Notes: generated from the sequence alone by a model not told the origin. Shown: positions 5,079 through 20,115, numbered from the stretch's first letter. The stretch is DNA of 64,000 nucleotides from an uncultured Chloroflexia bacterium (GCA_963849495.1 CAWKHN010000012.1:21906-85905), one strand, 5' to 3'. Numbers and translations: made by a program.

Positions 5079-6008
5079 TCAGTGGTGTCCGAACGTGCCG
5101 TTGACCTGGTCGGTCGCCCGCTGGGTGACCTCGGTCTTCATGCTGTCGGCCTGGGCCTGCGTGATGGTCCCGGCCTTGACCTGGGCGGCGAGCTCGTCGA
5201 GCCCGTCCTGGACGAGGGCGTCGATCACCGTCTGGGTGGCGACGTTGTGGGCCTTGGCGACGTCCGCGATCGTCTGGCCGCCCTGGAGGGCGGTCTTGAG
5301 ATCGGCCTCGGTGATCCCGATCGCCTTGGCGACGACCGAGGCATCGCTGACAGCTTCATTGCGGCCGAAGCCGCCCGGGCCGGCGTGATCGCCTCGCCCG
5401 GGGCCGGCCCTGAACGTGCCGTTGACCTGGTCGGTCGCCCGCTGGGTGACCTGCGTCTTCATGCTGTCGGCCTGGGCCTGGGTGATGGTCCCGGCCTTGA
5501 CCTGGGCGGCGAGCTCGTCGAGCCCGTCCTGGACGAGGGCGTCGATCACCGTCTGGGTGGCGACGTTGTGGGCCGTCGCGACCTGCGCGATGGTCTGGCC
5601 GCCCTGGAGGGCGGTCTTGAGATCGGCCTCGGTGATCCCGATCGCCTTGGCGACGACCGAGGCATCGCTGACAGCTTCATTGCGGCCGAAGCCGCCCGGG
5701 CCGGCGTGATCGCCGCCCTTGCCGGGACCCGGATGATCGCCATCCGCTTTCGGGTTCGTGTCGGCATCTGTGTTGCCCGTGGCGGCGGGCGTCGTGGTTG
5801 CTGCGGGGGTCGGTGAGGCGGCGTCCACTGCCAGCGGCCCGACGATCGATGCTGCGGCGATCCCGCCGGCCACGATCGTCCCGAGCGCAGCCGCCTTGAT
5901 GCCGTGGCCGCGCCGACGGACACGCGGAGTCGTGGGGACGGCAGCCTCGGGCGAGCCGAACGGGTCGCCGGGAAGAAACGGTTCCGGCATCTCGTTGTCG
6001 TTGGTCAT
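5079..6008 (-). CDS. Secreted or membrane-anchored hypothetical protein with two near-identical ~100-aa helical domains
   Basis: Arg-rich stretch, hydrophobic helix and AVDA motif, a Thr/Pro linker, then the duplicated AVSDASVVAKAIGITEADLK...DQVNGTF domain. Confidence 0.85.
   Translation of the reverse strand: MTNDNEMPEPFLPGDPFGSPEAAVPTTPRVRRRGHGIKAAALGTIVAGGIAAASIVGPLAVDAASPTPAATTTPAATGNTDADTNPKADGDHPGPGKGGDHAGPGGFGRNEAVSDASVVAKAIGITEADLKTALQGGQTIAQVATAHNVATQTVIDALVQDGLDELAAQVKAGTITQAQADSMKTQVTQRATDQVNGTFRAGPGRGDHAGPGGFGRNEAVSDASVVAKAIGITEADLKTALQGGQTIADVAKAHNVATQTVIDALVQDGLDELAAQVKAGTITQAQADSMKTEVTQRATDQVNGTFGHH
5091..5714. repeat. Intragenic direct repeat, two ~303-bp copies with 321-bp period (5091-5393 and 5412-5714)
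   Basis: Copies align base by base with about ten mismatches by eye. Confidence 0.92.
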
Positions 6009-6081: not shown

Positions 6082-6145
6082 GTACCCTGCCCTGCCGATC
6101 CTTTCGAACCCGTGACACGCGGCGGAGGTTGCGCGGCGCCCGGAC

Positions 6146-9022
6146 CTACCAGGTCACGAGCTTCCAGATCTCGGGCTCGAGCTCGCCGGGCCGGCCCCCG
6201 ACCTCCGCGAAGATCGCCACCGCCCGCTTGAGGTGGACCATCGCCTCGTCCGGCAGGCCGACGGCGTGGAGCTGATCGGCGAGGTTGTTCTCGACAGCTG
6301 CCTCAAGGTGGCGCTCGCCCGTCCGCCGGCACGCCTCGAGGGCTGCTTCGAGCAGGACGATGGCAGCCCTCCGGTCTCCGGAGGCTGCCTCCACCAGCGC
6401 GAGGGCATTGCGGGCCGCGATCGCCGCCCCCGCGTCCGGATCGGCTTCGGCAAGCTCGAGGCTGCGCAGGAGGACCGTTCGGGCTTCGGCAAGGTCACCG
6501 CGTTCCCTGGCGACAAGCCCGAGCACCCGGTGCGCGGCACCGGCCGCGGGATCATCGCCCGCGGCTTGAGCCAGCTCCAGCGCGCGGACCGCGAACGCCG
6601 CCGCCCGCGTGAGCTCGCCCGCCCGGTGGGCGACGACGGACCGTTCCACCAGCGCGCGGGCGAGAAGCCGGTGGTCGCCGACGGTAGACCTGTCCGCTTC
6701 GATCGCGGCGTCGAGATAGCTTGCCGCAGCGACAAGGTCGCCGCGACGTGCGTGCACCCGGCCGAGGCGGAGCTCCACCCCGGGCAGCCCTGCCTCGTCC
6801 GTGACCGCAGCGGCGGCCTCCAGTGCTGCGATCGCGCCCGCGTAGTCTCCGACCGCGGTCCGAACCTCGCCGAGGGCAAGCTGGATCCCGGCAACGTCCG
6901 GGTGCCCGAGCGCAAGCGCAGTCTCGAGGTGAGCGACGGCCTCGCGCGGGGCGTACAGCGCGCGCTCACGGAGGCCCGCCTGGCGGAAGGCTTCAGCCGC
7001 CTCAGCGTCACGTCCTGCCTCGCGCTCGTGGACCGCCACCTGGACGAGGCGGCCGGGATCGTCGCGGTGGGCCGGGTCGGCGCGCAGCAGGTCGGCCGTC
7101 CGGCGGTGGAGCAGCCGGCGGCGGGCCAGGCCGATCGCCTCGTGGGCGGCTTCGCGAAGCCTCGCGTGGGAGAAGTCGAACGCGATCCCGGGCCTCGTCC
7201 CGACCTCTCGCACGATCCCGTGTCGGACCAGCTCCTCCAGCGCCGTGAGCGTCTCATCCTCCGACCGGCCGCTGGTTCCCCGGACCAGCGAGAGGTCGAA
7301 CGAGCGGCCGATGACGGCCGCGGCGGCCAGCACCTGGCCGGCCGTCTCGCTCACCCTGGAGAGTCGTTCGCGCAGCAATGCGCGGACCGTCCTCGCGGGC
7401 CCGTCCGCGCCAGGCGATCCGGCGGCGAGCGCTTCCACGATGTACAGGGGGAGGCCTTCCGAGGCCTCGACCAGCGCGTCAACCTCGACCGGCCGCAACC
7501 CTGCGTCGGCGGCGGAGGCCGCCAGCGTCGCGACGACGTCACGGGACAGCCGGCCCAAGGTAACGGACACCACCCCGGGAAGAACCTCGATCGTCGTCGC
7601 AAACGCCGCGCCGGGCGGATCGAGATCCTCGGGCCGCCAGGCCAGCAGGAGCAGCATCGGACGTCCGGCGAGGCGCCGGGCGAGGTACGTCAGCACCTCC
7701 CGCGAGGCGTCGTCGGCCCAATGGAGGTCCTCGACGATGACGAGCCCGGGCACTGGCCCGGCGACGAGTGCGGCCAGCGAGGTCGCCAGGGCGTCCAAAA
7801 GGCGGGCGCGCGCGCCGGGGAGGTCTCCGGGTGCGTCGGGTGCGCTCCGGCGGCCGCCGGCGCGTGCCGCGCTCGCGGGGAGCGCCACGAGTCGCTCCAG
7901 CTCGCCGAGCGTCGCGTCGGGCAGGTCGCGCAGGCGGTCGAGCGCATCGTGGCGCGCAAGGCCGGCACGCAGCAGCTCGATGATCGGCCCGTAGGCGATG
8001 CCGCTCTCGGACGCGAACGCCCGCGCGCCAAGGGTCACGCCACCGGCAGCCTCCACGGCCCCGGTGACGGCCTCCGCGATCCGGGTCTTGCCGATCCCCG
8101 CCTCGCCGGTCACAGCCACGACCCGCCCATCCGTGCCCGCGGCCCGGTACGCCGACAGGATGGCCGCCAGCTGGGCATCGCGCCCGACCATCGGCAGCCG
8201 ACCGGGGGCAACCGGCGCCGAGGCCACGATGATCGAGCCGGGCTCCGGCTGCGGGATCGTCACGCTGAGGCGGCCATTGCGGATCGCCTCATAGAGCTCG
8301 GTGGTCTCGGCAAGGGGGGCCACGCCCAGCTCACGCTCCAGAACCGCGACGCACGCCCGGTACTGGCGGATCGCCCCGGCGCGATCCCCGGACCGGGCGA
8401 GGTACGTCATCAGCCGCCGATGCGCGGGCTCGTCGAGCGAGTCGAGGTCGACGAGCCGCTGCGCAGCCGCGATCGCCCCGTCGAGGTCCCCGGACGCCTC
8501 GGCAGCCGATGCCAGCCGGTCGAGCACTCCCATGACGCTCCGGTCGACGGAGACCGACCGCGTCGCCCGCCAGTCGTCGAACTCGGGGCTGTCGCGCAGG
8601 GAGAACCCGACGAGGAACGGGCCGCGGGCGAGATCCGCGGCGGCTCGCAGCGCGTCGGCATCCGACGTGGACGTGGCAACCTCGAGCACCGCGAGATCCA
8701 CCCACGCCCCGTCGAGCTCGACACTGGAGCGGTCGACGCGGAGCCACCGGTCGCCAAGCGCCGCCCGGAGGACCGACAGCGTCCGCCGGAGGGCGCCCCG
8801 GGCCGACTCGTCGTCCGACTCGGGCCACAGCATCGCGGCGAGCTCCTCGCGCGCCAACGGGCGTCCCTCCACTGCCAGCAGCGCGAGGATGGCGAGGGCC
8901 TTGCGCGTGTCCACGACCAGGGGCACGCCGTCCACTCGAACCTCGAGCGGACCGAGGATGCGGATCTGAAGCCCAGCCGGCGAAACGGGCTCCGAGGCCG
9001 TCGTGGTCACGGAGTGAGACAT
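6146..9022 (-). CDS. SARP/AfsR-like transcriptional activator: winged HTH + BTAD + STAND/AAA ATPase + TPR
   Basis: IRILGPLEV...LWPESDDESARGALRRTLS (wHTH), DLARGPFL...FDDW and DEPAHRRLM (BTAD), VGRDAQL...GEAGIGKT (Walker A), VEDLHWAD (Walker B), then TPR helices. Start placed at ATG 9022. Confidence 0.92.
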   Translation of the reverse strand: MSHSVTTTASEPVSPAGLQIRILGPLEVRVDGVPLVVDTRKALAILALLAVEGRPLAREELAAMLWPESDDESARGALRRTLSVLRAALGDRWLRVDRSSVELDGAWVDLAVLEVATSTSDADALRAAADLARGPFLVGFSLRDSPEFDDWRATRSVSVDRSVMGVLDRLASAAEASGDLDGAIAAAQRLVDLDSLDEPAHRRLMTYLARSGDRAGAIRQYRACVAVLERELGVAPLAETTELYEAIRNGRLSVTIPQPEPGSIIVASAPVAPGRLPMVGRDAQLAAILSAYRAAGTDGRVVAVTGEAGIGKTRIAEAVTGAVEAAGGVTLGARAFASESGIAYGPIIELLRAGLARHDALDRLRDLPDATLGELERLVALPASAARAGGRRSAPDAPGDLPGARARLLDALATSLAALVAGPVPGLVIVEDLHWADDASREVLTYLARRLAGRPMLLLLAWRPEDLDPPGAAFATTIEVLPGVVSVTLGRLSRDVVATLAASAADAGLRPVEVDALVEASEGLPLYIVEALAAGSPGADGPARTVRALLRERLSRVSETAGQVLAAAAVIGRSFDLSLVRGTSGRSEDETLTALEELVRHGIVREVGTRPGIAFDFSHARLREAAHEAIGLARRRLLHRRTADLLRADPAHRDDPGRLVQVAVHEREAGRDAEAAEAFRQAGLRERALYAPREAVAHLETALALGHPDVAGIQLALGEVRTAVGDYAGAIAALEAAAAVTDEAGLPGVELRLGRVHARRGDLVAAASYLDAAIEADRSTVGDHRLLARALVERSVVAHRAGELTRAAAFAVRALELAQAAGDDPAAGAAHRVLGLVARERGDLAEARTVLLRSLELAEADPDAGAAIAARNALALVEAASGDRRAAIVLLEAALEACRRTGERHLEAAVENNLADQLHAVGLPDEAMVHLKRAVAIFAEVGGRPGELEPEIWKLVTW

Positions 9023-9055
9023 TGCGCGTAACGGTACCGCGCCGCGGCCAGATCT

Positions 9056-9088
9056 CGTAACGTTCTGCAAACGGCGCCGTTCCACCAT
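9056..9088 (+). promoter_or_regulatory. Direct-repeat activator box plus -10 (site 1): CGTAACG-ttctg-CAAACG ... CACCAT
   Basis: TAACG and AAACG are 11 bp apart, and a NANNNT hexamer sits at offset 27-32. Same geometry as sites 2 and 3. An extra CGTAACG lies at 9027. Confidence 0.6.
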
Positions 9089-9096
9089 CCGAGGCC

Positions 9097-9186
9097 ATGA
9101 CCGCGTCCCGAGCCGTGCCCAACGTCGCACGCGTACCCGTCCCGCTTGCCGTCGCCATCTCGGCCGTCGCGCCGGAGCGACCTTGA
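9097..9186 (+). CDS. Putative 29-aa leader peptide (MTASRAVPNVARVPVPLAVAISAVAPERP)
   Basis: ATG 8 nt after the site-1 -10. Its TGA overlaps the ATG of the next gene (TGATG). Confidence 0.4.
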   Translation: MTASRAVPNVARVPVPLAVAISAVAPERP

Positions 9187-10412
9187 TGGGCGCGACCGAC
9201 AGCCGGAGCGGCGCACGGGCGGAGGCCCGGCTTGGGCGCCTCCCGACGGCGGCTCTCTGGGCAGTGATCCTTGTCCTCGCCACGGGGGGCCTGGCCAACG
9301 TCCTGCTGCCGGAGACTTCAACTCAGAACACCGACGCGATCGCCTTCGTGCTCTCGGCGGTGATCACGCTGCTGTTCGGTAGCGTCGGCTCGCTCGTCGT
9401 CAGCCGGCAGCCGGCCAACGCTGTCGGCTGGTTGCTGTGGCTCGTGGGCGTCCTCATCGGCCTGAGCATGGCATCGACCGCGTTCACGGCGTGGAGCCTG
9501 AGCGCGTTCGATGCGCAGCTGCCCGGGACGGTAGTCGCCGCCTGGATCACCCAGTGGACGTTCAGCCCGACCCTGGTCATCACCCTGCTATTCCTGCCCC
9601 TCCTCTTCCCCGACGGCCGGCTTCCGTCGCGGCGCTGGCGCTGGGCGCTCGGGTTCGCCACCCTGGCCGCCGTCGCCGCCGGCCTGCCAGACATGCTCCA
9701 ACCCGGCCCGCTCGAGCCGACGGGGATCCCAAATCCGACCGGTTGGTCGGGTAGCCCCTCACTGCTGGACGCGCTGCGGGCCTTCAACTCGATCAGCCCG
9801 ATCCCCGCGTTCCCGGTCGTGGTCGCGTCCGCCGTCGTCCGCTTCCGGCACGGCAGCGCCATCGAGCGCCAGCAGCTCAAGTGGTTCGGGGCCACGGTCG
9901 CGCTCGCGCTGATCTCGCTCGCCGTGGCGGTGATCGCCCCCGACCCGATCGGGTACGCCGGCTTCTTCGGGGCGATGGTCGCTGTCGCCCTCCTGCCGGT
10001 CGCGATCGGGATCGCCATCCTGCGCTACCGCCTGTATGCGATCGACCGCCTCATCAGCCGGTCGATCTCGTGGGCCATCGTCAGCGTGAGCCTCACCGCC
10101 ATCTTCGTCACCGTGCTCGTCGCGCTCCAGGCGGCCCTCGCCGGGGTCACCCAGGGCGGCACCCTCGCGGTCGCCGCCTCCACCCTCGCGTCGTTCGCGC
10201 TGTTCCAGCCGTTGCGACAGCGGGTCCAGGAGATCCTCGACCGGCGCTTTGATCGTGCTCGCTACGACAGCCATCGACTCGCAGACGCCTTCGCCGAGCG
10301 CCTGCGGGACGAGGTCGACCTTGCCGAGATCTGCGACCAGATGCTCGCGACCGTGGCGACGGCCGTCCGTCCTGAGCACGGGTCGGTCTGGCTGAGAGGA
10401 GGTGGCACATGA
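9186..10412 (+). CDS. Multi-pass membrane sensor-like protein, array member 1 (ends in an N-terminal GAF fragment)
   Basis: About 9-10 hydrophobic segments. Motifs RQPANAVGW, LFPDGRLPSRRWR, ERQQLKWF, ILRYRLYAIDR and FQPLRQRVQ...DRRFDR...RLRDEVDL...VRPEHGSVWLR. Confidence 0.9.
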   Translation: MGATDSRSGARAEARLGRLPTAALWAVILVLATGGLANVLLPETSTQNTDAIAFVLSAVITLLFGSVGSLVVSRQPANAVGWLLWLVGVLIGLSMASTAFTAWSLSAFDAQLPGTVVAAWITQWTFSPTLVITLLFLPLLFPDGRLPSRRWRWALGFATLAAVAAGLPDMLQPGPLEPTGIPNPTGWSGSPSLLDALRAFNSISPIPAFPVVVASAVVRFRHGSAIERQQLKWFGATVALALISLAVAVIAPDPIGYAGFFGAMVAVALLPVAIGIAILRYRLYAIDRLISRSISWAIVSVSLTAIFVTVLVALQAALAGVTQGGTLAVAASTLASFALFQPLRQRVQEILDRRFDRARYDSHRLADAFAERLRDEVDLAEICDQMLATVATAVRPEHGSVWLRGGGT

Positions 10413-10602
10413 CCGCGCCCGCACGCAACGGGCGATCGAGTGGTTCGGGCGCGTGACCCAGCCCGACGCCGTCACCGCGCCTCGCCCGCTGCGGTCGCCC
10501 GCCCCTCTCGGCGCCCCGCTCGCGGCACTCGCCTTCCCGGTGCTCGGATGGCGCCCGTGAGGCCCCGTGCCGCCCATCGGCGAGCCGCCGGGCGGCTCCT
10601 GC

Positions 10603-10635
10603 CGTAACGTTCCCGGAACGGAGGTTTCAGAGGAT
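10603..10635 (+). promoter_or_regulatory. Direct-repeat activator box plus -10 (site 2): CGTAACG-ttccc-GGAACG ... GAGGAT
   Basis: TAACG and GAACG at 11-bp period, GAGGAT at offset 27-32, and the in-frame GTG start at offset 39. Confidence 0.65.
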
Positions 10636-10641
10636 CACCTG

Positions 10642-11952
10642 GTGAGCCAGAGCGTCCCAAGCCCCAGGCCACTCGATCCGGAGGATCGTGGCCGTGCGCC
10701 GCTCGCAAAGCCGCCCGACGGTCCTGCCGCGGTCGGCCGCGTGTCCGCGCGCACGTGGCTCGCCGGGATCGCCTGGGCCGCCTCCGCCGCGCTCGGCGGC
10801 CTCGGCATCGCCTTGCTTGCCGCGACATGGTCGACCAATGTCCCGGGCGTGTGGGGAGTTCGCGGCTTCTCGATTGCGCTCGGGCTCGCGTCGGCATCGA
10901 TCGGCGTCGTCGTGGTCGTCCGGGTGTCCGGCAATCCGATCGGTTGGCTGTTCATGACCAGCGGCCTCCTGGGCGCACTCCAAGGCTTCTGCGTGCAATA
11001 TGCGGTTGCCGGGTTGCTCGCTGCGCCGGGCAGCCTGCCCGGCCCGGAGCTGGCGGCCTGGGTGGGGGGCTGGGCCTGGATCCCCGCCATGAGCGCCATG
11101 GGGGCGTTCCTGCCGTTGGTCTTCCCGTCCGGAAGCCTGCCGTCGCCCCGCTGGCGACCCTTGGTCGCGTTCGGTGCGGTGTGCGCGAGCCTCGCCACCC
11201 TGGGCGCCATGCTCCTGCCCGGTCGGCTCGACAACTCCGCGTACCTGGACAATCCGTACGCCGTCGTCACCGGGTTCCCGGGTCAGGCGCGCTGGATCGC
11301 TTACCTGCCGCTGATCATGGCCATCGTGGTGGGCGGCGTCACGCTGGCCGTAACGTTCCGCCGATCCACCGGCGAGCGACGCCAACAGCTGAAGTGGCTC
11401 GCGTTCTCGGCCGCCATCGCCGCGGCGGCCCTGGCCCTGGTCCCGATCGGCCAGGCCGGGATCGGCGTCCTGCCCGCCTGGGCATCGAGGGGGACTGAGA
11501 TCCTGGTGGTGCTCGGTCTGCTGGGCATACCCGTCTCGGCCGGGGTCGCCGTGCTCCGCTACCGGTTGTGGGAGATCGACCGGATCGTCAGCCGAACCAT
11601 CAGCTACCTGATCGTCAGCGCCGTGCTCGCCGCTCTGTTCGCTGCCACCGTCGTTGGGCTCCAGGAGCTGCTGAGCCCGGTGACCGGGCAGAGCACGGTC
11701 GCGGTGGCAGCCGCCACGCTGCTCGCCTTCACGGTGTTCCAGCCGCTGCGTCGCCGCGTCCAGCTCACGGTTGATCGTCGCTTCAATCGGGCGCGCGTGG
11801 ATGCCCAGCGCGTCCTCGACGGGTTCGCCGCCGGGCTGCGCGACGACACGGAGCTCGACTCCCTCAACGATCACCTCGAAATGGTCGTCGCGCGATCGAT
11901 GCAGCCGCGGGCAGTCGGCATCTGGACACGGCAGGGAGGGACGGCACGGTGA
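10642..11952 (+). CDS. Multi-pass membrane sensor-like protein, array member 2
   Basis: GNPIGWLF, FPSGSLPSPRWR, RRQQLKWL, VLRYRLWEIDR and FQPLRRRVQ...MQPRAVGIWTR. GTG start 6 nt after the -10. Confidence 0.9.
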   Translation: MSQSVPSPRPLDPEDRGRAPLAKPPDGPAAVGRVSARTWLAGIAWAASAALGGLGIALLAATWSTNVPGVWGVRGFSIALGLASASIGVVVVVRVSGNPIGWLFMTSGLLGALQGFCVQYAVAGLLAAPGSLPGPELAAWVGGWAWIPAMSAMGAFLPLVFPSGSLPSPRWRPLVAFGAVCASLATLGAMLLPGRLDNSAYLDNPYAVVTGFPGQARWIAYLPLIMAIVVGGVTLAVTFRRSTGERRQQLKWLAFSAAIAAAALALVPIGQAGIGVLPAWASRGTEILVVLGLLGIPVSAGVAVLRYRLWEIDRIVSRTISYLIVSAVLAALFAATVVGLQELLSPVTGQSTVAVAAATLLAFTVFQPLRRRVQLTVDRRFNRARVDAQRVLDGFAAGLRDDTELDSLNDHLEMVVARSMQPRAVGIWTRQGGTAR

Positions 11953-12062
11953 CAGTCGTCGACCTCGACGCCGTCCGGGCGGGACTGGTGGGCGCCGTCG
12001 ATGAGATCCTGAACCCGACGGACCTGAGGTTATGGCTCCGGATGGACGGCGGAGGCCGATGA
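11949..12062 (+). CDS. 37-aa microprotein made only of the array C-terminal tail (MTVVDLDAVRAGLVGAVDEILNPTDLRLWLRMDGGGR)
   Basis: Not in the ORF track. GGAGGG RBS, GTGA overlap with the member-2 stop and ATGA overlap with the member-3 start. Matches the VDL...V...P....WLR tail. Confidence 0.7.
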   Translation: MTVVDLDAVRAGLVGAVDEILNPTDLRLWLRMDGGGR

Positions 12063-13285
12063 TGAGGATCCGCCCCGGGCTCGCGGCGCATGCCCTGGCT
12101 GTTGGCGCGCTGCCGCTCGACGTCGGATTCCTGCTGCTCCTCCTGCCGGCCCCGGCTGAGGAGCTGGCGCAGCTCGGCACGACCTCGGCCGGCGGGTTCG
12201 TGCTGGGGGCCACATTTCCGATCGTCGGCTGGATGGTCGCCTCGAAGCGGCCGGGCAACCCGATGGGCTGGATCTTCCTGGGCGTCGGGCTGTCGCAGGC
12301 GCTCGACACGTTCGCATCGCAGTACGCGATCGTCGGCCTGCAGACCGCGCCCGGATCGCTGCCTGCCGCCGATGTCATGTCCTGGATCGCCAGCTGGGTG
12401 TGGGCACCGGGCTTCGCCTTGCTCCTGACCGCGACGGTGCTCCTGTTCCCCGACGGGCGTCCACCGTCGCCCCGCTGGCGGCCCGTGCTGTGGGCCGGGG
12501 CCCTGGCCGTCGTCCTCCTGGCCATACCGATCGCGATCATCGCCTGGCCCAGCCGGGGCGTCGCCCTGCTAGGCCCCGGGCCCGGCCCGTCCGACGTGGT
12601 GGCTGGCGATCCGGTCGCCACTGCCGTGCTCGGTTTCCTCGGTGCGCTCACGAATGTCGGGCTGCTGTTGCTGCTCGCGTCGGGTGCCTGCTCGGTTGCC
12701 GGGCTCATCATCCGCTTCCGGCGTTCCGCGGGCGTCGAGCGAGCGCAGCTCACATGGTTCGCGGCGGCCGGTGTCGTCGAGATCGCGCTGATCGTGGCAT
12801 CAACGCTCGAGATCCTCCCGTGGCCGCAGTTGAACACGGCGCTCGCGATCGCCGTGTCACCGCTGCTCCCGGTGGCCGCGGCGATCGCGATCCTCCGTTA
12901 CCGGCTGTACGAGATCGACCGGATCGTCAGTCGGACGATCGGCTACCTGCTCGTGTCGGGCCTGCTCGCGGCGATGTTCGCCCTCCTGGCGGTCACGCTG
13001 CAGGGGCTGCTGGCGCCGTTCACGGAGCGCAACGGCCTGGCGGTCGCCGGATCGACGCTCGCGGTGGCAGCCCTGTTCCAGCCGGTACGCCGCCGGATCC
13101 AGCGGGCCGTGGATCGCCGCTTCAATCGCGCACGAGTGGATGCCGAACGGATCGAGGGCGAACTTACCAACCGCATCCGCGACCAGGTCGATGCCGGCGC
13201 CGTTGTCGGCCTGCTCGTCACGTCCGTCGAGCAGACGGTGCAACCGGCGTTCAGCACAGTCTGGATCCGGGAGCGGGCTCGGTGA
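12059..13285 (+). CDS. Multi-pass membrane sensor-like protein, array member 3
   Basis: RPGNPMGWIF, LFPDGRPPSPRWR, ERAQLTWF, ILRYRLYEIDR and ...VQPAFSTVWIR. Confidence 0.9.
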   Translation: MMRIRPGLAAHALAVGALPLDVGFLLLLLPAPAEELAQLGTTSAGGFVLGATFPIVGWMVASKRPGNPMGWIFLGVGLSQALDTFASQYAIVGLQTAPGSLPAADVMSWIASWVWAPGFALLLTATVLLFPDGRPPSPRWRPVLWAGALAVVLLAIPIAIIAWPSRGVALLGPGPGPSDVVAGDPVATAVLGFLGALTNVGLLLLLASGACSVAGLIIRFRRSAGVERAQLTWFAAAGVVEIALIVASTLEILPWPQLNTALAIAVSPLLPVAAAIAILRYRLYEIDRIVSRTIGYLLVSGLLAAMFALLAVTLQGLLAPFTERNGLAVAGSTLAVAALFQPVRRRIQRAVDRRFNRARVDAERIEGELTNRIRDQVDAGAVVGLLVTSVEQTVQPAFSTVWIRERAR

Positions 13286-14559
13286 CCGGTCCTGCCGGCG
13301 CGCAGCTCCAGTCGCCGACGCCTCCCAAGTTCGATCCAGCGCAACGAGGCGCAATGTCCAGTCAACGGCCGAGAGCGGGCGGCCATCCCTCGAGCCCGGT
13401 TGCGGCGGTCCTCGCTGCGGCCCTCACTGTTGGCGTCGGGACGGCCGCGATCGCGTTCCTGCTGATCCCGGCCCGCGCTGGCATCCAGGGGACCGGGCTC
13501 TCCCCCGACGTGGCAATGACGGCAATGTTCGTCCTGGTGACGCCGGTCCTCGGCGCGTTGCTGGCGGTCCGCCAGCCTGGCAACCGCATCGGCTGGCTGT
13601 TCATTGCGGTCACCTTCTTCTTCGTGATCGGATTCCTGGGCGACGGGGTTGCGCGGCACGCGGCGCCGACGCCGTTGATCGCGTCGTTCGCGGTAATCAG
13701 CAACGCGCTCGGCTACTTCGCGTTCGCCCTGCTGTTCGTGATCTTCCAGGTGTTCCCGACCGGACAGGTCCTTCCCGGTTGGGGCTGGCTGCCCGTGGGC
13801 GTGATCGCCGGCTCGGCGATGCAGGCGATCACCGGCCTGGTCGGCCCGCTGTCCTTGGTGCCGCCGATCCCAGACCTCTCGAACCCGCTGGTGCAGCCTG
13901 CCTGGCAACCGGCGCTCGACGCGATCGACCTCGTCACCGGCCTCGTGTTGGTCGTGGTGGCGGTCGGCACCATCGTCGCGCTCGCGATCCGATTCCGACG
14001 TGCCAAAGGGGTCGAGCGCCAGCAGATCAAGTGGTTCGCGTGGGCCGGGATGCTCACGGTCGGCCTGCTGGCAGCGAGCCTGCTCAGCAGTCCGTGGGGT
14101 CCAGTCTCGGGCGCGCTGTGGGCGCTCGCCCTGGCGAGTCTCGTCCTGATTCCGGTCGCCACGACCGCAGCGATCCTGCGCTACCGGCTGTGGGACATCG
14201 ACCGGATCGTCAGCCGCACCCTGTCGTACGCGATGGTGAGCGCTCTCCTGGCGACGGTCTTCGCGGCGCTCGTGCTCGGGCTTCAGGAGCTGCTGGCGTC
14301 GGTCACGGGTGCGGGCACGATCTCGATCGCCGCTTCGACCCTGGCCGTGTTTACGCTGTTCCAGCCAGCGCGGCGGCGGGTCCAGCGCATGGTCGACCGG
14401 CGGTTCGACCGCAGTCACTACGACGCCGAGCTGGCCCTGGCCCGTCTTGCCGCCCGCCTGCGGAGCGAGACCAGCTTCGACCTCGTTGGCCTCGAGGTCG
14501 AGGCTGCCATCCGTCACGCCCTGGCGCCCTCGCGGGTGGCCGTCTGGACGCGTCGATGA
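13282..14559 (+). CDS. Multi-pass membrane sensor-like protein, array member 4
   Basis: GTGA overlap (alternative ATG at 13354). RQPGNRIGWLF, FPTG, ERQQIKWF, ILRYRLWDIDR and ...LAPSRVAVWTRR. Confidence 0.9.
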   Translation: MTGPAGAQLQSPTPPKFDPAQRGAMSSQRPRAGGHPSSPVAAVLAAALTVGVGTAAIAFLLIPARAGIQGTGLSPDVAMTAMFVLVTPVLGALLAVRQPGNRIGWLFIAVTFFFVIGFLGDGVARHAAPTPLIASFAVISNALGYFAFALLFVIFQVFPTGQVLPGWGWLPVGVIAGSAMQAITGLVGPLSLVPPIPDLSNPLVQPAWQPALDAIDLVTGLVLVVVAVGTIVALAIRFRRAKGVERQQIKWFAWAGMLTVGLLAASLLSSPWGPVSGALWALALASLVLIPVATTAAILRYRLWDIDRIVSRTLSYAMVSALLATVFAALVLGLQELLASVTGAGTISIAASTLAVFTLFQPARRRVQRMVDRRFDRSHYDAELALARLAARLRSETSFDLVGLEVEAAIRHALAPSRVAVWTRR

Positions 14560-15767
14560 GGCCGGCTGGACGCCGCCCGCGGCTGCGGTTGGCGATCATC
14601 CTCGGGGTCGCGGCGGTCGCGCTCGCGTTCGTCGCCGTGGGGGTCCCGATGGGGATCGCGACACTCGATCAGTACGGGCCGACCGGGCCACTGTTCATCG
14701 TCATCTTCCCGGCGATCGTGCTGTCGCTCACGTTGGTCGGCGCATTCGTGGCGGCTCGCGTGGCCAACCCGGTCGGCTGGCTGCTGGAGCTGTCCGGGCT
14801 CGCTGCCGCGGTCGGCATCTTCGGCGGGACGTACGTGAACTACGACCACGACACGGCGGCCGGACTGCCGCTGGTGGTCCCGCTTGCCTGGCTGTCGAGC
14901 TGGACGCTCCTGCCCGCGATCGGGATGCTCCTGGTCTATGTCCCAATGCTGTTTCCGAGCGGCCAATTCCTGGGACCCCGGTGGCGGGCGCTGGGCCTGA
15001 TCGGCCTGCTGGGCGTCGCCGGGACGATCGCATCCGGCTTCACGCCGGGTCCGTTGTCGAGCACCCCGTGGATCCAGAACCCGGTCGGGATCCCGGGCGC
15101 GGGGGACGCGCTGGCGGTGGTCTCGACCCTGTCCAACCTTGCCACGCCATTCGTGTTCGGGGGTGCCGTGATCAGTGTCTTCGTTCGCTACCGGCGGGCG
15201 GACACGGTCGAGCGCCAGCAGCTCAAGTGGTTCGGCCTCGTGGCCGGCATCGCGGTGGTGGCCTTCGTCGTCTCCATCCCCAACAACGGGCCGGTCTCGG
15301 ACATCGCCTGGGAGGTCGGCCTCGTCACGCTGGTGCTGCTGCCGGTGGCGATCGGGATCGCGATCCTCCGCTACCGCCTGTGGGACATCGACCGGATCGT
15401 CAGCCGGACGATCGCTTGGGTCGTGATCACCACGATCCTGGCGGCCGTGTTCGCCGGCCTGATCGTGGGCCTGCAGGCGGCGCTGGCACCCGTGACCGCG
15501 AGCAACTCGCTCGCCGTGGCAGCCTCCACGCTGGCTGCGGCCGCCCTGTTCCAGCCCCTTCGCCGCCGGGTTCAGACGGCTGTCGATCGCCGGTTCAATC
15601 GGAGTCGCTACGATGCCGAGCGCACGGTCGGCAGCTTCGCCGAGCACCTCCGGGGCGTCACCGATCTGGCCGAGATCAGCGACGGCGCGGTCGCGGCGGT
15701 CGTTCGGTCGCTCAGCCCGAACGGTGCCGCGGTCTGGATCCGATCACACGGGGAGGGGGACGCATGA
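14556..15767 (+). CDS. Multi-pass membrane sensor-like protein, array member 5
   Basis: ATGA overlap. NPVGWLL, LFPSGQFLGPRWR, ERQQLKWF, ILRYRLWDIDR and ...LSPNGAAVWIR. Confidence 0.9.
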   Translation: MRPAGRRPRLRLAIILGVAAVALAFVAVGVPMGIATLDQYGPTGPLFIVIFPAIVLSLTLVGAFVAARVANPVGWLLELSGLAAAVGIFGGTYVNYDHDTAAGLPLVVPLAWLSSWTLLPAIGMLLVYVPMLFPSGQFLGPRWRALGLIGLLGVAGTIASGFTPGPLSSTPWIQNPVGIPGAGDALAVVSTLSNLATPFVFGGAVISVFVRYRRADTVERQQLKWFGLVAGIAVVAFVVSIPNNGPVSDIAWEVGLVTLVLLPVAIGIAILRYRLWDIDRIVSRTIAWVVITTILAAVFAGLIVGLQAALAPVTASNSLAVAASTLAAAALFQPLRRRVQTAVDRRFNRSRYDAERTVGSFAEHLRGVTDLAEISDGAVAAVVRSLSPNGAAVWIRSHGEGDA

Positions 15768-16963
15768 CGCTCCTGCGGAGCCGGCCGATGCGCGCGATCC
15801 CGTATCTCGCCGTTGCGACCCTGACCGGCGGCCTCTCGGCCTGGTTCAACCAGGACTGGTCGGGGTGGTTGATCGTCATCTCGTTCTCCGCCGTCGGCAT
15901 GTTCCTGCTCTGGCGGCGCCCCCGGGAGATCGTCGCCTGGCTCCTGGTCGGAGCCGCGATCCTGTTCCCGTGGGTTGGCAGCAGCCTGCCGGGCTCGGCA
16001 TCGCAGGTCGTCGACGGCAACGCCGAGCCGGTGGTCACGCTGTTCGCCTGGCTCAACTCCTGGTGCAGCAGCCTGTTCTTCGGGGCCTTCGTCGCGCTCG
16101 CGGCGCTGTTTCCGGCCGGCCGCTTCCCGGCGGGACGGCTTGGGATCGCCAGCCGCATCGCCGTCGCGACACCGATCGCGTTCGCCGTCGTGCTCGCGTT
16201 CGCCCCAAGCGTCACGATCACGTTCGTCGACGGGACCGCGGCGGCGGTCGGCCTGCCGCTCGCCATCTTCCCGGACTGGCCTGGTTGGGCGGTTCTCCAG
16301 GTCGGGGTCTACTTCGCCGTGCTCACGGCTCTCGCGGTCTCCGTTGTGACCCTGATCGTCCGATTCCGGCGAGCCCGCGGTTCGGAACGCGCCCAGCACA
16401 AGTGGCTGCTGGCGGCCCTGGCCGCGACCCTGGGCTCGGTGATCTTCGCCTTCGCGATGATCCTCCTGGTCGATCCCGTCGGCACCTGGATGTGGGTGGC
16501 AGCCGTGGTTGCCTATCCCACGATCCCGATCGCGATCGGGATCGCGATCCGCCGCTACCACCTGTACGACATCGACCGCGTCGTCAGCCGGACCATCGCC
16601 TATCTCGTCGTGACCGGGCTGCTCCTCGTCATCTTCGGCGGGCTCGTCGTCAGCCTCCAGGCGGCTCTTGCCGGGCTTACCCAGGGACAGACCCTCGCGG
16701 TCGCAGCCTCGACCCTGGCTGCCCTCGCCCTGTTCCAGCCGCTGCACCGTCGTGTGCAGGCGACCGTGGACCGTCGGTTCGATCGGACGAGCGTGGATGC
16801 GCAGCGAACCATTGACGGCTTTGCCGGGCAGCTTCGAGACGAGGTCGATCTCGCGACGCTGCGCGGCGTCCTGGTCGCGACCGCGGATTCGGCCGTCCGC
16901 CCGGACGGGGTGGCCCTCTGGGTTCGTAACGTCTCGAAGGCTCGATCATCCGTGGTTTCGTAA
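15764..16963 (+). CDS. Multi-pass membrane sensor-like protein, array member 6
   Basis: ATGA overlap with GGAGGGGG RBS. LFPAGRFP, ERAQHKWL, IRRYHLYDIDR and QLRDEVDL...VRPDGVALWVR. Confidence 0.9.
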   Translation: MTLLRSRPMRAIPYLAVATLTGGLSAWFNQDWSGWLIVISFSAVGMFLLWRRPREIVAWLLVGAAILFPWVGSSLPGSASQVVDGNAEPVVTLFAWLNSWCSSLFFGAFVALAALFPAGRFPAGRLGIASRIAVATPIAFAVVLAFAPSVTITFVDGTAAAVGLPLAIFPDWPGWAVLQVGVYFAVLTALAVSVVTLIVRFRRARGSERAQHKWLLAALAATLGSVIFAFAMILLVDPVGTWMWVAAVVAYPTIPIAIGIAIRRYHLYDIDRVVSRTIAYLVVTGLLLVIFGGLVVSLQAALAGLTQGQTLAVAASTLAALALFQPLHRRVQATVDRRFDRTSVDAQRTIDGFAGQLRDEVDLATLRGVLVATADSAVRPDGVALWVRNVSKARSSVVS

Positions 16964-16991
16964 CGATGTCCGGACACGCACGCATGAGGAT
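16959..16991 (+). promoter_or_regulatory. Direct-repeat activator box plus -10 (site 3): CGTAACG-atgtc-CGGACA ... GAGGAT
   Basis: GAGGAT at offset 27-32 and ATG at offset 39, as at site 2. An extra CGTAACG lies at 16925. The TAA stop of member 6 lies inside the motif. Confidence 0.65.
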
Positions 16992-16997
16992 CTGGTC

Positions 16998-18641
16998 ATG
17001 ACAGCACTGACCCGTCCATTCCGGCGCCTGCGCGGACGCCAGGACGTCCCATCGGTCGACGCGGCCGTCGCCGAACCGGCGCCTGCCACGGAGGAGTCGT
17101 CCGGTATTGCGATCGACATTCCGCATTCGGACCCGCTGTTCGCATACCTCCAGTCGGCACCGGGGCCGGTGGACCTCACGAAGCTCGAGCTCGCGTCCGA
17201 GGTGCTCGAGCAGCTTCGTGAGGCCGGCGTGGCCCTCGTGGTGCCGCTGGTCACCCAGGGCGAGCTGATCGGCACCCTGAACCTCGGTCCACGGCTTTCC
17301 GAGCAGGACTACTCGACGGACGACCGACGGCTGCTGGCCACGCTTGCCGCCCAGGCTGCGCCCGCGATCCGCGTCGCCCAGCTCGTCCGTGAGCAGGCGG
17401 CGGAGGCGGCTGAACGCGAGCGGTACGAGCAGGAGCTGAAGGTCGCGCAGCTGATCCAGCAGCAGTTCCTGCCGCACGAGCTGCCGAACCTCCCCGAGTG
17501 GCAGATCGCGGCCTACTACGGCCCGGCGCGTGTCGTGGGCGGCGACTTCTACGACTTCATCGACCTCGGCGAGGGCCGGATCGGCGTGGTCGTCGGCGAT
17601 GTCACCGACAAGGGGGTCCCTGCCGCCCTGGTCATGGCCCGCACCCATTCGATCATGCGCGCCGAGGCACCGCGGCTCATCGATCCGGGCAAGGTCCTCG
17701 CACGCGCCAACGAGCTGCTGGTGCCGGAGATGCCGCCGCGGATGTTCGTGACCTGCCTCTACGGCGTGCTCGAGCCCGCGACCGGCCGGTTCAGGTTCGC
17801 CAACGCCGGCCACAACCTGCCCTATGTCCGGACCGCAGACGGCGTGATCGAGCTGCGGGCGACCGGGCTGCCGCTCGGCCTGCTGCCGGAGATCAGCTAC
17901 GAGGAAACCGTGGGAACGATCGCTGCCGGCGACGCGATGCTGCTGTACTCGGACGGCGTCGTCGAGCAGCACGGGCCGGGGCGCGAGATGTACGGGTTCC
18001 CCCGGCTCCGCGAGGCGATGGCCACCAACGAAGCCGGCAGCCGCTTGCTGGATCGCCTGCTCGAGGGCCTGCACGCGTTCACCGGCGCAAGCTGGGAGCA
18101 GGAGGACGACATCACGCTCGTCACGCTGCGCCGAGCGGCGGCGGTGGCCGGGGACTGGTCCGAGGATCGGCCGGAGGTCGAGCTCACCCGTGATGATGCG
18201 CCAGCGGTCGACGATGGCGAGGTTTTGGCCTCGTTTACCATCCAGGGCGCGATCGGCAACGAGCGCGAGGCGATGGAGCGAGTCGCGGTGGCCGTGGCCC
18301 CCCTCGGTCTGGCCGAGTCGCGCCTGGAGCGCCTGAAGACTGCCGTCGCCGAAGCCGTCATGAACGCGATCGAGTACGGATCCCAGGGGAATCCCGACGT
18401 CCCGGTGGACGTGCGGGTCGACGCGGATGCCGGGGAGATCCGGATCCAGGTGACGGATCGCGCGCTGTCGGGCCCCGTGCCGGACGTGGAGGCGCCGGAT
18501 CTCGACGCCAAGCTCGAGGGTCGCCAGAAGCCGCGCGGCTGGGGGCTGTTCCTCATCCGCCACATGGTCGACGGGATGGATGTCCACGCCGCCGACGGTC
18601 TGCAGACCGTGACCCTCACCCTCGCCCGGGACGGGCGCTGA
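16998..18641 (+). CDS. Partial GAF + SpoIIE/RsbU-type PP2C phosphatase + RsbW-like HATPase fusion
   Basis: GAF C-terminal part (VALVVPLVTQGELIGTLNLGPR...DDRRLLATLAAQAA) and a coiled coil. PP2C motifs VGGDFYD, GDVTDKG, MFVT, NAGH, YSDG and DDIT. HATPase motifs EAVMNAIEYG and RGWGLFLI. Confidence 0.92.
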   Translation: MTALTRPFRRLRGRQDVPSVDAAVAEPAPATEESSGIAIDIPHSDPLFAYLQSAPGPVDLTKLELASEVLEQLREAGVALVVPLVTQGELIGTLNLGPRLSEQDYSTDDRRLLATLAAQAAPAIRVAQLVREQAAEAAERERYEQELKVAQLIQQQFLPHELPNLPEWQIAAYYGPARVVGGDFYDFIDLGEGRIGVVVGDVTDKGVPAALVMARTHSIMRAEAPRLIDPGKVLARANELLVPEMPPRMFVTCLYGVLEPATGRFRFANAGHNLPYVRTADGVIELRATGLPLGLLPEISYEETVGTIAAGDAMLLYSDGVVEQHGPGREMYGFPRLREAMATNEAGSRLLDRLLEGLHAFTGASWEQEDDITLVTLRRAAAVAGDWSEDRPEVELTRDDAPAVDDGEVLASFTIQGAIGNEREAMERVAVAVAPLGLAESRLERLKTAVAEAVMNAIEYGSQGNPDVPVDVRVDADAGEIRIQVTDRALSGPVPDVEAPDLDAKLEGRQKPRGWGLFLIRHMVDGMDVHAADGLQTVTLTLARDGR

Positions 18642-18644
18642 CCG

Positions 18645-19019
18645 ATGGAGGTAGCCATGAACGAGCGGCGACTCGACATCGAGGTGATCACCTCGATCCC
18701 CGGGGAGGCTCGGCTTGCGATGCGCGGTGACGTCGACATCGCGGCCGACGAGACCCTGGCCTCGGCCTACAAGGCCGCGGCATCGGCCGGCGCCACCCGC
18801 GTCGTCCTCGACTTCACCACCGTCGACTACATCAACTCGACCGGCATCGCTCTGATCGTCCGCCTCCTCGCCGAGGCCCGTCGCGATCATCGCGACGTCA
18901 TCGCGGTCGGTCTGTCCGATCACTACCGGGAGATCTTCCGGATCACCCGCCTGTCCGACTACCTCACCATCGCCGACGGCGTTTCGGCAGGCAGCGTTCC
19001 AGAGGAGGGCAACCGATGA
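18645..19019 (+). CDS. STAS-domain anti-sigma-factor antagonist 1
   Basis: GDVD...VVLDFTTVDYINSTGIALI...IFRITRL. Phosphorylatable Ser present. ATG 18657 is an alternative start. Confidence 0.9.
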   Translation: MEVAMNERRLDIEVITSIPGEARLAMRGDVDIAADETLASAYKAAASAGATRVVLDFTTVDYINSTGIALIVRLLAEARRDHRDVIAVGLSDHYREIFRITRLSDYLTIADGVSAGSVPEEGNR

Positions 19020-19360
19020 CCGATACCATGATCGAGGTCGGCCAGCACGGCGACGCAACGATCCTGCGCATCCACGGGGACATCACGGGGGGCAGCGAGC
19101 CAGCGCTGATGGACGCCTACAGCCAGGCTGGGTCGGCTCGGTCCGTCGTGCTCGACTTCGGCGATCTCGAGTACATGAACAGCGGTGGGATCGGGCTGCT
19201 GGTGACACTGCTGGTGCGCACGCAGCGAGCCGGCCAGAAGCTGCTCGCGGTCGGCCTGACCGAGCACTACCGCCAGATCCTGGCCCTGACGCGCCTCGAC
19301 GAGGCGATCTCCATCCACGACGACGAGCCGGCGGCACTGGCCGCGGCCGCCTCCACCTGA
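19016..19360 (+). CDS. STAS-domain anti-sigma-factor antagonist 2
   Basis: VVLDFGDLEYMNSGGIGLLV...ILALTRLD. ATGA overlap. Confidence 0.9.
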   Translation: MTDTMIEVGQHGDATILRIHGDITGGSEPALMDAYSQAGSARSVVLDFGDLEYMNSGGIGLLVTLLVRTQRAGQKLLAVGLTEHYRQILALTRLDEAISIHDDEPAALAAAAST

Positions 19361-19374
19361 ACGGAGCGTTCCCC

Positions 19375-20115
19375 ATGACCACCCAGCCTCGCACTCCCCG
19401 CGACAAGGAGTCCTGGGCACGTCCCGTTGACCGGCTGTCCACGACCGCGAAGACCGGCGGCATGGACACCGTCACCGGCAAGCGCGTCTCGGGCCCGATC
19501 CAGGGCTTCGGGCAGATGTGGCAGAAGACGTTCAAGGTGAGGCTCGACGGCGTCGACCTCGACCCGGAGGCGGTCATCGCGCACTGGAAGGCCGGCTTCC
19601 CGACCTTCTGGCCCAAGGGAGCCGCGTTCTACGCCCCCCTGGCGGGCATTACGCCCGGCGAGGTCGCGCTGCTCGAGGTGGCACCCGTGCCCGGTTCGCC
19701 TGTGAAGATGTCGACCGGCGTGCTGGTGATCTACGCTGACAACGAGTCGTTCACGTTCATGACGCCCGAGGGTCACGCACTGTCCGCATGGATCACCTTC
19801 TCCGCCTACCGGGACGGCGACGTCACCGTCGCCCAGGCCCAGGCCCTCGAGCGGACGAGCGATCCGTTCATCGAGCTCAGCTACATGTTTGGCGCAAACC
19901 GCTCGAACGACCGATTCTGGGAGCGGACCCTGGAGAACCTCGCTGTGTCGCTGGGTGTCGCGGCGCCGGTCATCGAGGCCCAGAAGGTGTGCGTGGACAG
20001 GCGGCGCCAGTGGCGGTACGTCCGCAACCTGCGGCACAGCGCGGCGGTGAACATGGCGATCGGCACCGTCACTGCGCCGGCGCGCTGGATGCGTCGGCGG
20101 CGGGCCACCGGCTGA
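19375..20115 (+). CDS. Hypothetical protein (possibly DUF1990/SRPBCC-like)
   Basis: SFTFMTPEGH..S.WITF segment resembles DUF1990-like proteins. Co-oriented in the operon. Confidence 0.75.
   Translation: MTTQPRTPRDKESWARPVDRLSTTAKTGGMDTVTGKRVSGPIQGFGQMWQKTFKVRLDGVDLDPEAVIAHWKAGFPTFWPKGAAFYAPLAGITPGEVALLEVAPVPGSPVKMSTGVLVIYADNESFTFMTPEGHALSAWITFSAYRDGDVTVAQAQALERTSDPFIELSYMFGANRSNDRFWERTLENLAVSLGVAAPVIEAQKVCVDRRRQWRYVRNLRHSAAVNMAIGTVTAPARWMRRRRATG

Follow-up and report, generated by a model that had tools for sequence, protein, structure and literature searches.

Gene content of the locus

We have analysed a 64,000-nucleotide stretch of DNA from an uncultured Chloroflexia bacterium (GCA_963849495.1 CAWKHN010000012.1:21906-85905; hereafter 'the window'), which carries the gene for a large regulator of the Streptomyces antibiotic regulatory protein (SARP) type and, on the opposite strand, three direct-repeat sites that are likely to be the SARP-dependent, leaderless promoters of a single regulon. 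The sites begin at 9056, 10603 and 16959 and share the form CGTAACG-N4-nnGRACG-N9-NANNAT-N6/8-ATG/GTG (Table 1). In each of them the second half-site follows 11 bp after the first, the hexamer occupies offsets 27-32, and a start codon is found at offset 41, 39 and 39, respectively. The consensus of the repeats reads yCGTAACGwT, one free position and ssGRACG, in an 11-bp register. An initial annotation of this DNA had drawn attention to the three sites, and its positions and strings for the CGTAACG heptamers, half-sites, hexamers and start codons all proved correct when read back from the sequence.

The region has a G+C content of 71%. Six tandem paralogues of a receptor-like polytopic membrane protein are encoded on the plus strand: P1, which follows site 1, and P2-P6, which form an operon behind site 2. 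The first two intergenic gaps of this operon measure 79 and 68 bp (the latter with ATG 13354 as the start of P4), and two ATGA stop/start overlaps follow. Site 3 precedes the output operon, which combines a GAF-SpoIIE(PP2C)-HATPase_c_2 fusion with two STAS proteins; its first heptamer (16959-16965) includes the TAA stop codon of P6. None of P1-P6 matched a Pfam or NCBIfam family, and in the protein Atlas the family is found in unnamed clusters only, the closest named one being HisKA_7TM at 0.83, which serves merely as a lead. The output operon gave anti-sigma-kinase-like matches in NCBIfam, under the cut-off. No biosynthetic cluster was seen among the regulon targets.

Table 1 Features of the window and corresponding sites on other contigs (C8, C9, C15) of the genome
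Feature	Position	Strand	Description
Promoter site 1	9056..9099	+	CGTAACG 9056-9062, GCAAACG 9067-9073, CACCAT 9083-9088, ATG 9097; 39.0 bits
Promoter site 2	10603..10644	+	CGTAACG 10603-10609, CGGAACG 10614-10620, GAGGAT 10630-10635, GTG 10642; 37.5 bits; composite-pattern match
Promoter site 3	16959..17000	+	CGTAACG 16959-16965, CCGGACA 16970-16976, GAGGAT 16986-16991, ATG 16998; 38.2 bits; composite-pattern match
Site on contig C15	C15:136702	+	Composite-pattern match; precedes seventh receptor paralogue, 420 amino acids
Site on contig C9	C9:218294	-	Composite-pattern match; precedes Ferric_reduct/FAD_binding_8/NAD_binding_1 oxidoreductase
Site on contig C8	C8:37294	-	Composite-pattern match; precedes 50-codon open reading frame (ORF), whose stop overlaps the start of the eighth receptor paralogue (TGATG)
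Regulator gene	6146..9022	-	958 amino acids from ATG 9022; winged helix + BTAD (SARP domain), AAA_16-type ATPase, TPR repeats
29-codon ORF	9097..9186	+	Starts at predicted transcript 5' end; stop overlaps P1 candidate starts TTG 9183 and ATG 9186 (TTGATG)
P1	9186..10412	+	Receptor-like polytopic membrane protein; ORF and codon-position G+C analysis
P2-P6	10642..16963	+	Operon of five further receptor paralogues; ORF and codon-position G+C analysis
Output operon	16998..19360	+	GAF-SpoIIE(PP2C)-HATPase_c_2 fusion, then two STAS proteins; Pfam
GAF-SpoIIE(PP2C)-HATPase_c_2 fusion	16998-18641	+	Pfam
Two STAS proteins	18645-19019 and 19016-19360	+	Pfam
50-codon ORF	L003 8104-8256	-	Starts at predicted transcript 5' end
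Conserved CGTAACGGTAC	9027..9037	+	-2.7 bits as promoter
CGTAACG in P2 coding sequence	11349..11355	+	1.6 bits, not promoter-like
CGTAACG in P6 coding sequence	16925..16931	+	4.9 bits, not promoter-like; copy in this position in 1/12 other genus loci
Duplicated-domain gene	5079-6008	-	About 309 amino acids, secreted-looking, two near-identical repeats of about 100 amino acids, weak helix-turn-helix (HTH)-like Pfam matches

Sites across the genome

We derived a weight matrix for the repeats and the hexamer from 68 sites, the six of this genome among them. It identified six sites of 28.9-39.0 bits spread over four contigs; the next best match reached 14.7 bits, and none in the reversed genome exceeded 18. 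The three sites that the initial annotation had described are real, but its count of three for the regulon was too low. A composite pattern, AACG-N7-RAC-N10-ANNNT-N6-RTG, has five matches genome-wide, each of which contains a full CGTAACG (Table 1). The spacing between hexamer and start codon in this genome is 6 nucleotides (nt) at five of the sites and 8 nt at site 1.

Counting bare heptamers alone makes a poor statistic. Six copies occur in the window versus 2.48 +/- 1.45 in shuffled sequences, a mild enrichment that 2 of 100 shuffles equalled, and with up to two mismatches no enrichment was found for the loose pattern (35 versus 27.65 +/- 5.90). Over its two strands, the 3.81-Mb genome has 66 copies in total, of which six fall within 8 kb at the locus. 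The earlier list of copies (9027, 9056, 10603, 16925 and 16959, all on the plus strand) was correct as far as it went, but omitted the one at 11349. The copies inside the coding sequences of P2 and P6 are not promoter-like. A weak candidate promoter that had been proposed on the minus strand at 6084-6117 did not hold up: with a score of -15.6 bits it stays short of the 99.9th percentile (-7.8) in a scan of 200 kb of background sequence and thus lies within background, and the duplicated-domain gene downstream of it stands beside the regulator in none of 35 related loci.

The remaining heptamer, at 9027, belongs to the conserved element CGTAACGGTAC, which is exact in nine of 12 same-genus loci and present as one-or-two-base variants in the other three; strings resembling it also occur in other genera. 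Its minus strand holds TACCGT (9036-9031), 8 nt before the regulator ATG, a candidate -10 element of the regulator's own promoter with one heptamer over it. Autoregulation is thus possible, and the position of the single heptamer over this candidate -10 suggests that the regulator may repress its own gene.

Outside the window, the predicted targets are two further receptor paralogues and one ferric-reductase-like oxidoreductase (Table 1); the latter found no counterpart at E <= 1e-40 when five related genomes were searched. Just upstream of the C8 site lies the end of a histidine-kinase gene. Genes of the sigma-70 family are localised at C9:225491-225691 and C8:45056-45244, 7-8 kb from the C9 and C8 sites. 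The contig pairs C17/C24, C14/C16 and C15/C27 show identical contexts and identical sigma-factor matches, which suggests redundant stretches in the assembly (contamination estimate 4.59%).

Conservation beside the regulator gene

The divergent side of the regulator gene was compared in 12 orthologue loci from genomes of the same genus, where the regulator orthologues are 56-71% identical. CGTAACG-N4-nnGRACG-N9-NANNAT precedes the first receptor-type ORF in all 12 loci, and in 11 of them a start codon comes 8 or 9 nt past the hexamer (offset 41-42), locus L027 having none there. The site of the P2 orthologue, with GTG at the same offset, recurs in genus loci, for example in L027 at 3020, and TTCGTAACGATGTCCGRACG-N9-GAGGAT-like-N6/7-ATG is found ahead of the PP2C gene in all 11 loci long enough to include it. 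Altogether, these 12 loci contain 33 sites, all on the target strand: 18 before receptor genes, 12 before the PP2C gene and three before neither. Among out-of-locus sites from other genomes of the genus, nine of 14 precede receptor-like genes, as judged by eye from an N-terminal motif.

A class-wide search added 25 loci with full-length orthologues (43-66% protein identity), drawn from further genera of the same family and from another family; none of our conclusions depends on three genomes in this set of results that are flagged as unpublished. All 25 carry CGTAACG-N7-RAC within 300 bp of the regulator start; taking both sets together, all 37 loci with a full-length orthologue have the site beside it, and in 33 of 35 loci a gene of the receptor family neighbours the regulator. 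In more distant relatives (genome_contigs; 38-64% identity) the site is present in 11 of 21. One of these 11 is Microbacterium candidum ASV49 (L079, NZ_JASXSZ010000005.1:315127-319822), a cultured actinobacterium and possible experimental model, in which a 534-amino-acid SARP-like gene faces a GAF-PP2C-HATPase gene, 48% identical to that of the window, across the same site, CGTAACG-CTTT-CGGAACG-N10-CATCAT-N6-ATG, whose spacing is of the leaderless type.

Ten proteins of about 500 amino acids come from a third family, f3 (L156-L165). They have the SARP domain in common (about 50% identity) and differ in the remainder of the protein, and carry the operator, with a CAGAGT hexamer, at their own start; it was found by pattern match in seven, and is truncated by the end of the extracted sequence in two more. 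The operator thus follows the DNA-binding domain rather than the sensor domains.

Exact 7-mers at an 11-bp period were also found upstream of distant homologues in three of 21 loci (L077, L086 and L108), which is suggestive only; they account for nine positions in 6,180 nt of upstream sequence versus 18 in 60,572 nt of coding control. The repeats in the divergent regions of these three loci are TGTGATCGTTT, TTGAACG and CCTGTGA, each present twice, and the upstream repeat of L072 has a 12-bp period. The combination of different repeats with different recognition-helix residues in L077, L086 and L108 hints at a family-wide code between regulator and repeat.

The conserved footprint

We gathered 68 unique sites with the pattern CGTAACG-N7-RAC. 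Outside the positions used for selection, conservation was high at T8 (61/68), G13 (60/68) and G17 (61/68) in the repeats and at A28 (61/68), A31 (51/68) and T32 (59/68) in the hexamer, with about 0 bits in the 9-bp spacer between them (positions 18-26). ATG or GTG stands at offset 39, 40 or 41 in 28, 8 and 12 of the 68 sites, respectively, versus 1.3% per position in background. Three blocks that keep fixed distances while the spacers between them vary freely point to a protein-binding site joined to a core promoter and not to drift after duplication.

Short reading frames at the predicted transcript 5' ends

The start codon at 9097 was correctly located in the initial annotation, but it opens a 29-codon ORF and not the first receptor gene itself. 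The matching ATG opens a full-length receptor (391-434 amino acids) in six of the 12 other genus loci and, in four, an ORF of 27-55 amino acids whose stop lies over the start of the next receptor; three of these four peptides end like receptor C-termini. The remaining two loci contain a 212-amino-acid ORF in one case and no start codon at offset 39-42 in the other. Judging from this 12-locus comparison, the short ORFs look like deletion relics that have kept a leaderless start and translational coupling, and the 29-codon ORF probably derives from a first receptor paralogue by internal deletion and would still couple translation to P1.

The regulator protein

The Pfam matches of the regulator comprise BTAD (PF03704, 74 bits against a cut-off of 22.1, residues 121-248), AAA_16 (83.3 bits, residues 278-458), TPR_12 (71.1 bits) and further TPR models; the NB-ARC model was not among them. 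With BTAD, a central ATPase and C-terminal TPR repeats, the protein has the architecture of a large SARP. Residues 18-246 align to EmbR (2fez) in phmmer with an E-value of 5.7e-07. An AlphaFold model of residues 1-330 reached a pLDDT (predicted local distance difference test) of 88.4 with a 22-sequence alignment, and its best PDB matches in Foldseek were the SARP chains of AfsR from transcription initiation complexes on promoter DNA, 8k60_J (E 5.7e-12, target-normalised TM-score 0.70) and 8hvr_I (0.73), followed by EmbR (E 9.1e-10). The N-terminal OmpR-type winged helix, weak by sequence, is thus clear in the modelled fold, which matches over winged helix and BTAD. The assignment as an AfsR orthologue was rejected: NCBIfam NF053617 scored 71.4 bits against a cut-off of 1430, and residues 8-319 alone matched.

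All 18 relatives that carry the site have the predicted DNA-reading segments, DTRKA...RRT[L/I]S, whereas these differ in all four with other direct repeats, such as TGTGATCGTTT or TTGAACG in two copies. They are absent from the other four BTAD proteins of the genome.

Distribution across the genus

The distribution of the site was analysed in 70 genomes of the genus, 41 of which were regulator-positive (40 at E <= 1e-60, plus G062, which was rescued). A loose 18-nt pattern gave about 1.7-1.9 reversed-control matches per genome, so that out-of-locus sites (about 2.0 per genome, hand tally) did not stand out. Because this pattern was too noisy, we adopted a strict 33-nt pattern that includes the A and T of the hexamer. 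It has 152 matches in the regulator-positive genomes, with at least one in 39 of the 41, and 12 matches in the 29 genomes without a detected regulator, six of which have at least one; the reversed-pattern control gave six matches in all 70 genomes. A hand tally in the 36 fully listed regulator-positive genomes found 53 sites outside the regulator locus, so the signal reflects more than the locus travelling with itself.

Predicted mechanism and leaderless transcription

With repeats at offsets 0-6 and 11-17 and a hexamer at 27-32, the sites have the arrangement by which SARP promoters are defined in PMC10936776 and PMC10972967. According to the former, SARP repeats have a spacing of 11 or 22 bp, the 3' one being 8 bp away from the -10 element; the afs box spans -40 to -19, centred at -29.5, at an afsS promoter whose -10 and -35 are both weak (PMC10936776). 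The latter describes heptameric direct repeats that overlap the -35 element (PMC10972967), and both sources describe a SARP dimer in side-by-side arrangement that contacts sigma region 4 and the polymerase core.

The CGTAACG-type repeat is very probably the binding site of the regulator. In the mechanism that we propose, two protomers of the divergently encoded SARP-ATPase-TPR protein would bind side by side on the two heptamer direct repeats, which would cover about -39 to -22 if +1 is placed at offset 39. A weak hexamer, [G/C]ANNAT and not TANNNT, would then lie at -12 to -7, with no usable -35. Once bound, the dimer would stand in for the absent -35 contact and bring in RNA polymerase, as AfsR does at the afsS promoter. 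Transcription would start at the start codon, or one to two bases before it, and yield leaderless mRNAs. The predicted regulon comprises P1 (via the 29-codon relic ORF), the five-gene receptor operon and the PP2C/anti-sigma-kinase and STAS operon, besides a dispersed part made up of two receptor paralogues and one ferric-reductase-like oxidoreductase. That the sites are SARP-dependent, leaderless promoters of one regulon, with the predicted binding, activation and transcription starts, is in our judgement likely. The sign of regulation, and the sensing of a signal by the ATPase/TPR part, we infer from the sequence.

The genomic context is consistent with leaderless transcription. Genome-wide, TANNNT shows a peak ahead of candidate starts, with 148 cases at 6 nt and 83 at 7 nt versus about 6 at other distances, and leaderless genes therefore seem to be common in this lineage. 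The regulon hexamers sit at the same leaderless -10 distance but begin with G or C and not with T; moreover, no sigma-70 consensus promoter was found in 8900-19500. Both features fit activator dependence.

The initial annotation had proposed a regulon of the divergent SARP-STAND regulator, repeats of 11-bp period immediately upstream of the -10, and mRNAs with no leader or almost none. The first proposal gains support from the 37 of 37 orthologue loci, the phyletic pattern, the helix signature and the AfsR-like fold; the geometry of the second fits published SARP/AfsR sites; and the third agrees with a -10/start spacing equal to the leaderless spacing of the genome, from which the transcription starts are predicted.

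Alternative explanations

Several observations weigh against SARP-dependent, leaderless promoters. The gap between repeat and hexamer is 9 bp as written, against a textbook 8 bp, and becomes 8 only if the repeat frame is moved by one base. GAGGAT 6 nt before a start is also a good Shine-Dalgarno sequence, and Shine-Dalgarno-like words are enriched 5-9 nt before starts genome-wide. Trans_reg_C scored 19.2 bits on the regulator, under its cut-off of 26.2, and the covariation of the recognition helix rests on four contrasting sequences and is confounded by phylogeny. The positions of CGTAACG-N7-RAC are invariant by construction in the 68-site set, and the weight-matrix scan is partly circular, as the six sites of this genome belong to its training set; the gap to the next match is nevertheless large. 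Part of the phyletic signal is trivial, since the locus of the regulator itself holds two to six sites; in addition, related genomes do not count as independent observations, and the assemblies are incomplete. Finally, six genomes have sites though no regulator was found in them, five of these being <=82% complete.

The main rival is that another winged-helix protein, for example a response regulator of the OmpR/PhoB type, binds the repeats and that the SARP gene is merely a conserved neighbour. A pho box of the PhoB/OmpR class II type consists of two 7-bp direct repeats with a 4-bp spacer that take the place of the -35, some 10 bp away from the -10, and the 7+4+7 layout of our sites is common to such boxes. 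The histidine-kinase gene next to the C8 site and the six genomes with sites and no detected SARP orthologue point the same way, but five of those six are the incomplete ones mentioned above. Against this explanation, the conserved core consists of the SARP gene, the site and a receptor or PP2C gene, with no response-regulator gene seen there; the site-linked protein has BTAD and lacks a receiver domain, and the site shows no linkage to a regulator with such a domain. The 314-amino-acid neighbour with weak HTH matches is found in none of 35 loci. Moreover, the site follows the SARP helix signature over three families and Microbacterium despite differing C-terminal domains. We regard binding by another protein as unlikely.

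A quite improbable reading is that the regulator does bind, yet the hexamer serves as a ribosome-binding site, with the true promoter upstream and the repeats acting as a 5'-region operator, repressing or otherwise. It draws on the GAGGA that ends 7 nt before the start, a good Shine-Dalgarno sequence in a genome with such words at 5-9 nt, and on the position of site 3 at the end of the upstream gene, where read-through transcripts are probable. The hexamer nevertheless keeps its sixth-position T in 59 of 68 sites and its second-position A in 61 of 68, neither of which a Shine-Dalgarno sequence needs, and many sites have CACCAT, CATCAT, GATGGT, CACCGT or GACGAT, which are not Shine-Dalgarno sequences, at the same offset. 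The 6-nt spacing coincides with the leaderless -10 peak of the genome, and the distance between repeat and hexamer is fixed at 9 bp while the sequence between them varies.

A promoter of an alternative or extracytoplasmic function (ECF) sigma factor, perhaps under control of the PP2C/anti-sigma-kinase/STAS module, would have the motif as its -35 and -10 elements. We consider this at least as improbable. GGAAC-like words occur in the second repeat, partner-switching parts are encoded at the locus, and the genome has 22 sigma-70-family matches. The motif is made of three blocks and not two, however, and the gaps to the hexamer are 20 bp from the first repeat and 9 bp from the second, neither of which is the 16-18 bp expected between -35 and -10; an ECF -35, the possibility raised in the initial annotation as one that would overturn its view, does not have this layout. 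Furthermore, no sigma gene is present on the contig of the window, the hexamer resembles a housekeeping -10 (NANNAT) at the leaderless position of this genome, and the site tracks the SARP gene, Microbacterium included.

We give almost no credence to the sites being neutral leftovers of tandem duplication, copied with the upstream regions of receptor genes: four of the six genome sites do precede paralogues of one family, but the repeats, hexamer and start codon alone are conserved while spacers are at about 0 bits, unrelated genes (PP2C, ferric-reductase-like) also carry the site, and it persists between loci whose regulators are only 43-66% identical. An RNA element was rejected, as no Rfam family matched 8800-17300 on either strand at E <= 1 and the repeats are direct, not inverted.

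Comparison with known SARP systems

SARP-dependent promotion, the reading that we prefer, has its closest parallel in AfsR of Streptomyces coelicolor, a large SARP with the same order of domains (winged helix-BTAD, ATPase, TPR) and with the fold match over the N-terminal 250 residues (8k60_J, 8hvr_I). The afsS promoter, like the sites described here, has two direct repeats over the -35 that keep an 11-bp register and are centred near -30, together with a weak -10 and no good -35. The two systems differ in that the proteins are only 26% identical in the structural alignment, the repeat here is CGTAACG / GRACG and the predicted transcripts are leaderless. The targets here are receptor-like membrane proteins and a partner-switching operon rather than an antibiotic regulator, and the nearest relatives carry Chloroflexota (Limnocylindria) titles.

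Small and medium pathway-specific SARPs such as ActII-ORF4, DnrI, RedD and PimR likewise use heptamer direct repeats with 4-nt spacers over the -35 and adjoin their targets, but three repeats are reported at several of those sites (PMC10972967), versus two here. Unlike in the pathway-specific SARPs, the regulon here is dispersed, with its six sites on four contigs. EmbR of Mycobacterium tuberculosis, which combines the SARP domain with FHA, matches in sequence and fold over winged helix and BTAD; its C-terminal FHA contrasts with the sensor ATPase plus TPR of our protein.

Taxonomic context and implications

The nearest named relatives are metagenome-assembled genomes titled Candidatus Limnocylindrales, Limnocylindria or uncultured Chloroflexia (some of the labels being inconsistent), plus one Microbacterium. 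Limnocylindria is a class of Chloroflexota, and the host is probably outside Actinobacteria. A review describes SARPs as "exclusively found in actinobacteria" (PMC10972967). In our literature search, none of the papers listed concerned the CGTAACG motif by title or abstract, and no paper on SARP together with Chloroflexi was among the matches listed. To our knowledge, work on large SARPs has treated them almost exclusively as antibiotic regulators of Streptomyces, and operators have been defined for few of them.

The mechanism suggested here would be the known SARP one; what appears unusual is that the targets are signalling rather than biosynthetic genes and that the mRNAs are predicted to be leaderless. 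More tentatively, and with somewhat less than even confidence, we propose that regulator and CGTAACG repeat form a portable circuit that extends beyond antibiotic clusters and Actinobacteria, and that in Limnocylindria-like Chloroflexota it may act as a self-repressing master switch of orphan receptors and a PP2C/anti-sigma-kinase/STAS output, working through leaderless mRNAs. If this is true, its recurrence in Microbacterium implies either inter-phylum transfer of a unit of regulator, operator and target or very old conservation. The prediction lends itself to testing in a cultured organism, as Microbacterium candidum carries this site ahead of a target of the same kind.

The locus offers a sharply defined 18-bp operator with its promoter context, a small complete regulon of six sites with a clear gap to background, and dozens of natural operator variants in uncultured soil bacteria. 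It would provide a test case for the 'sigma adaptation' of AfsR at leaderless promoters and outside Actinobacteria. Moreover, as its predicted targets are signalling genes, the regulon may give a handle on the role of an uncharacterised family of receptor-like membrane proteins.

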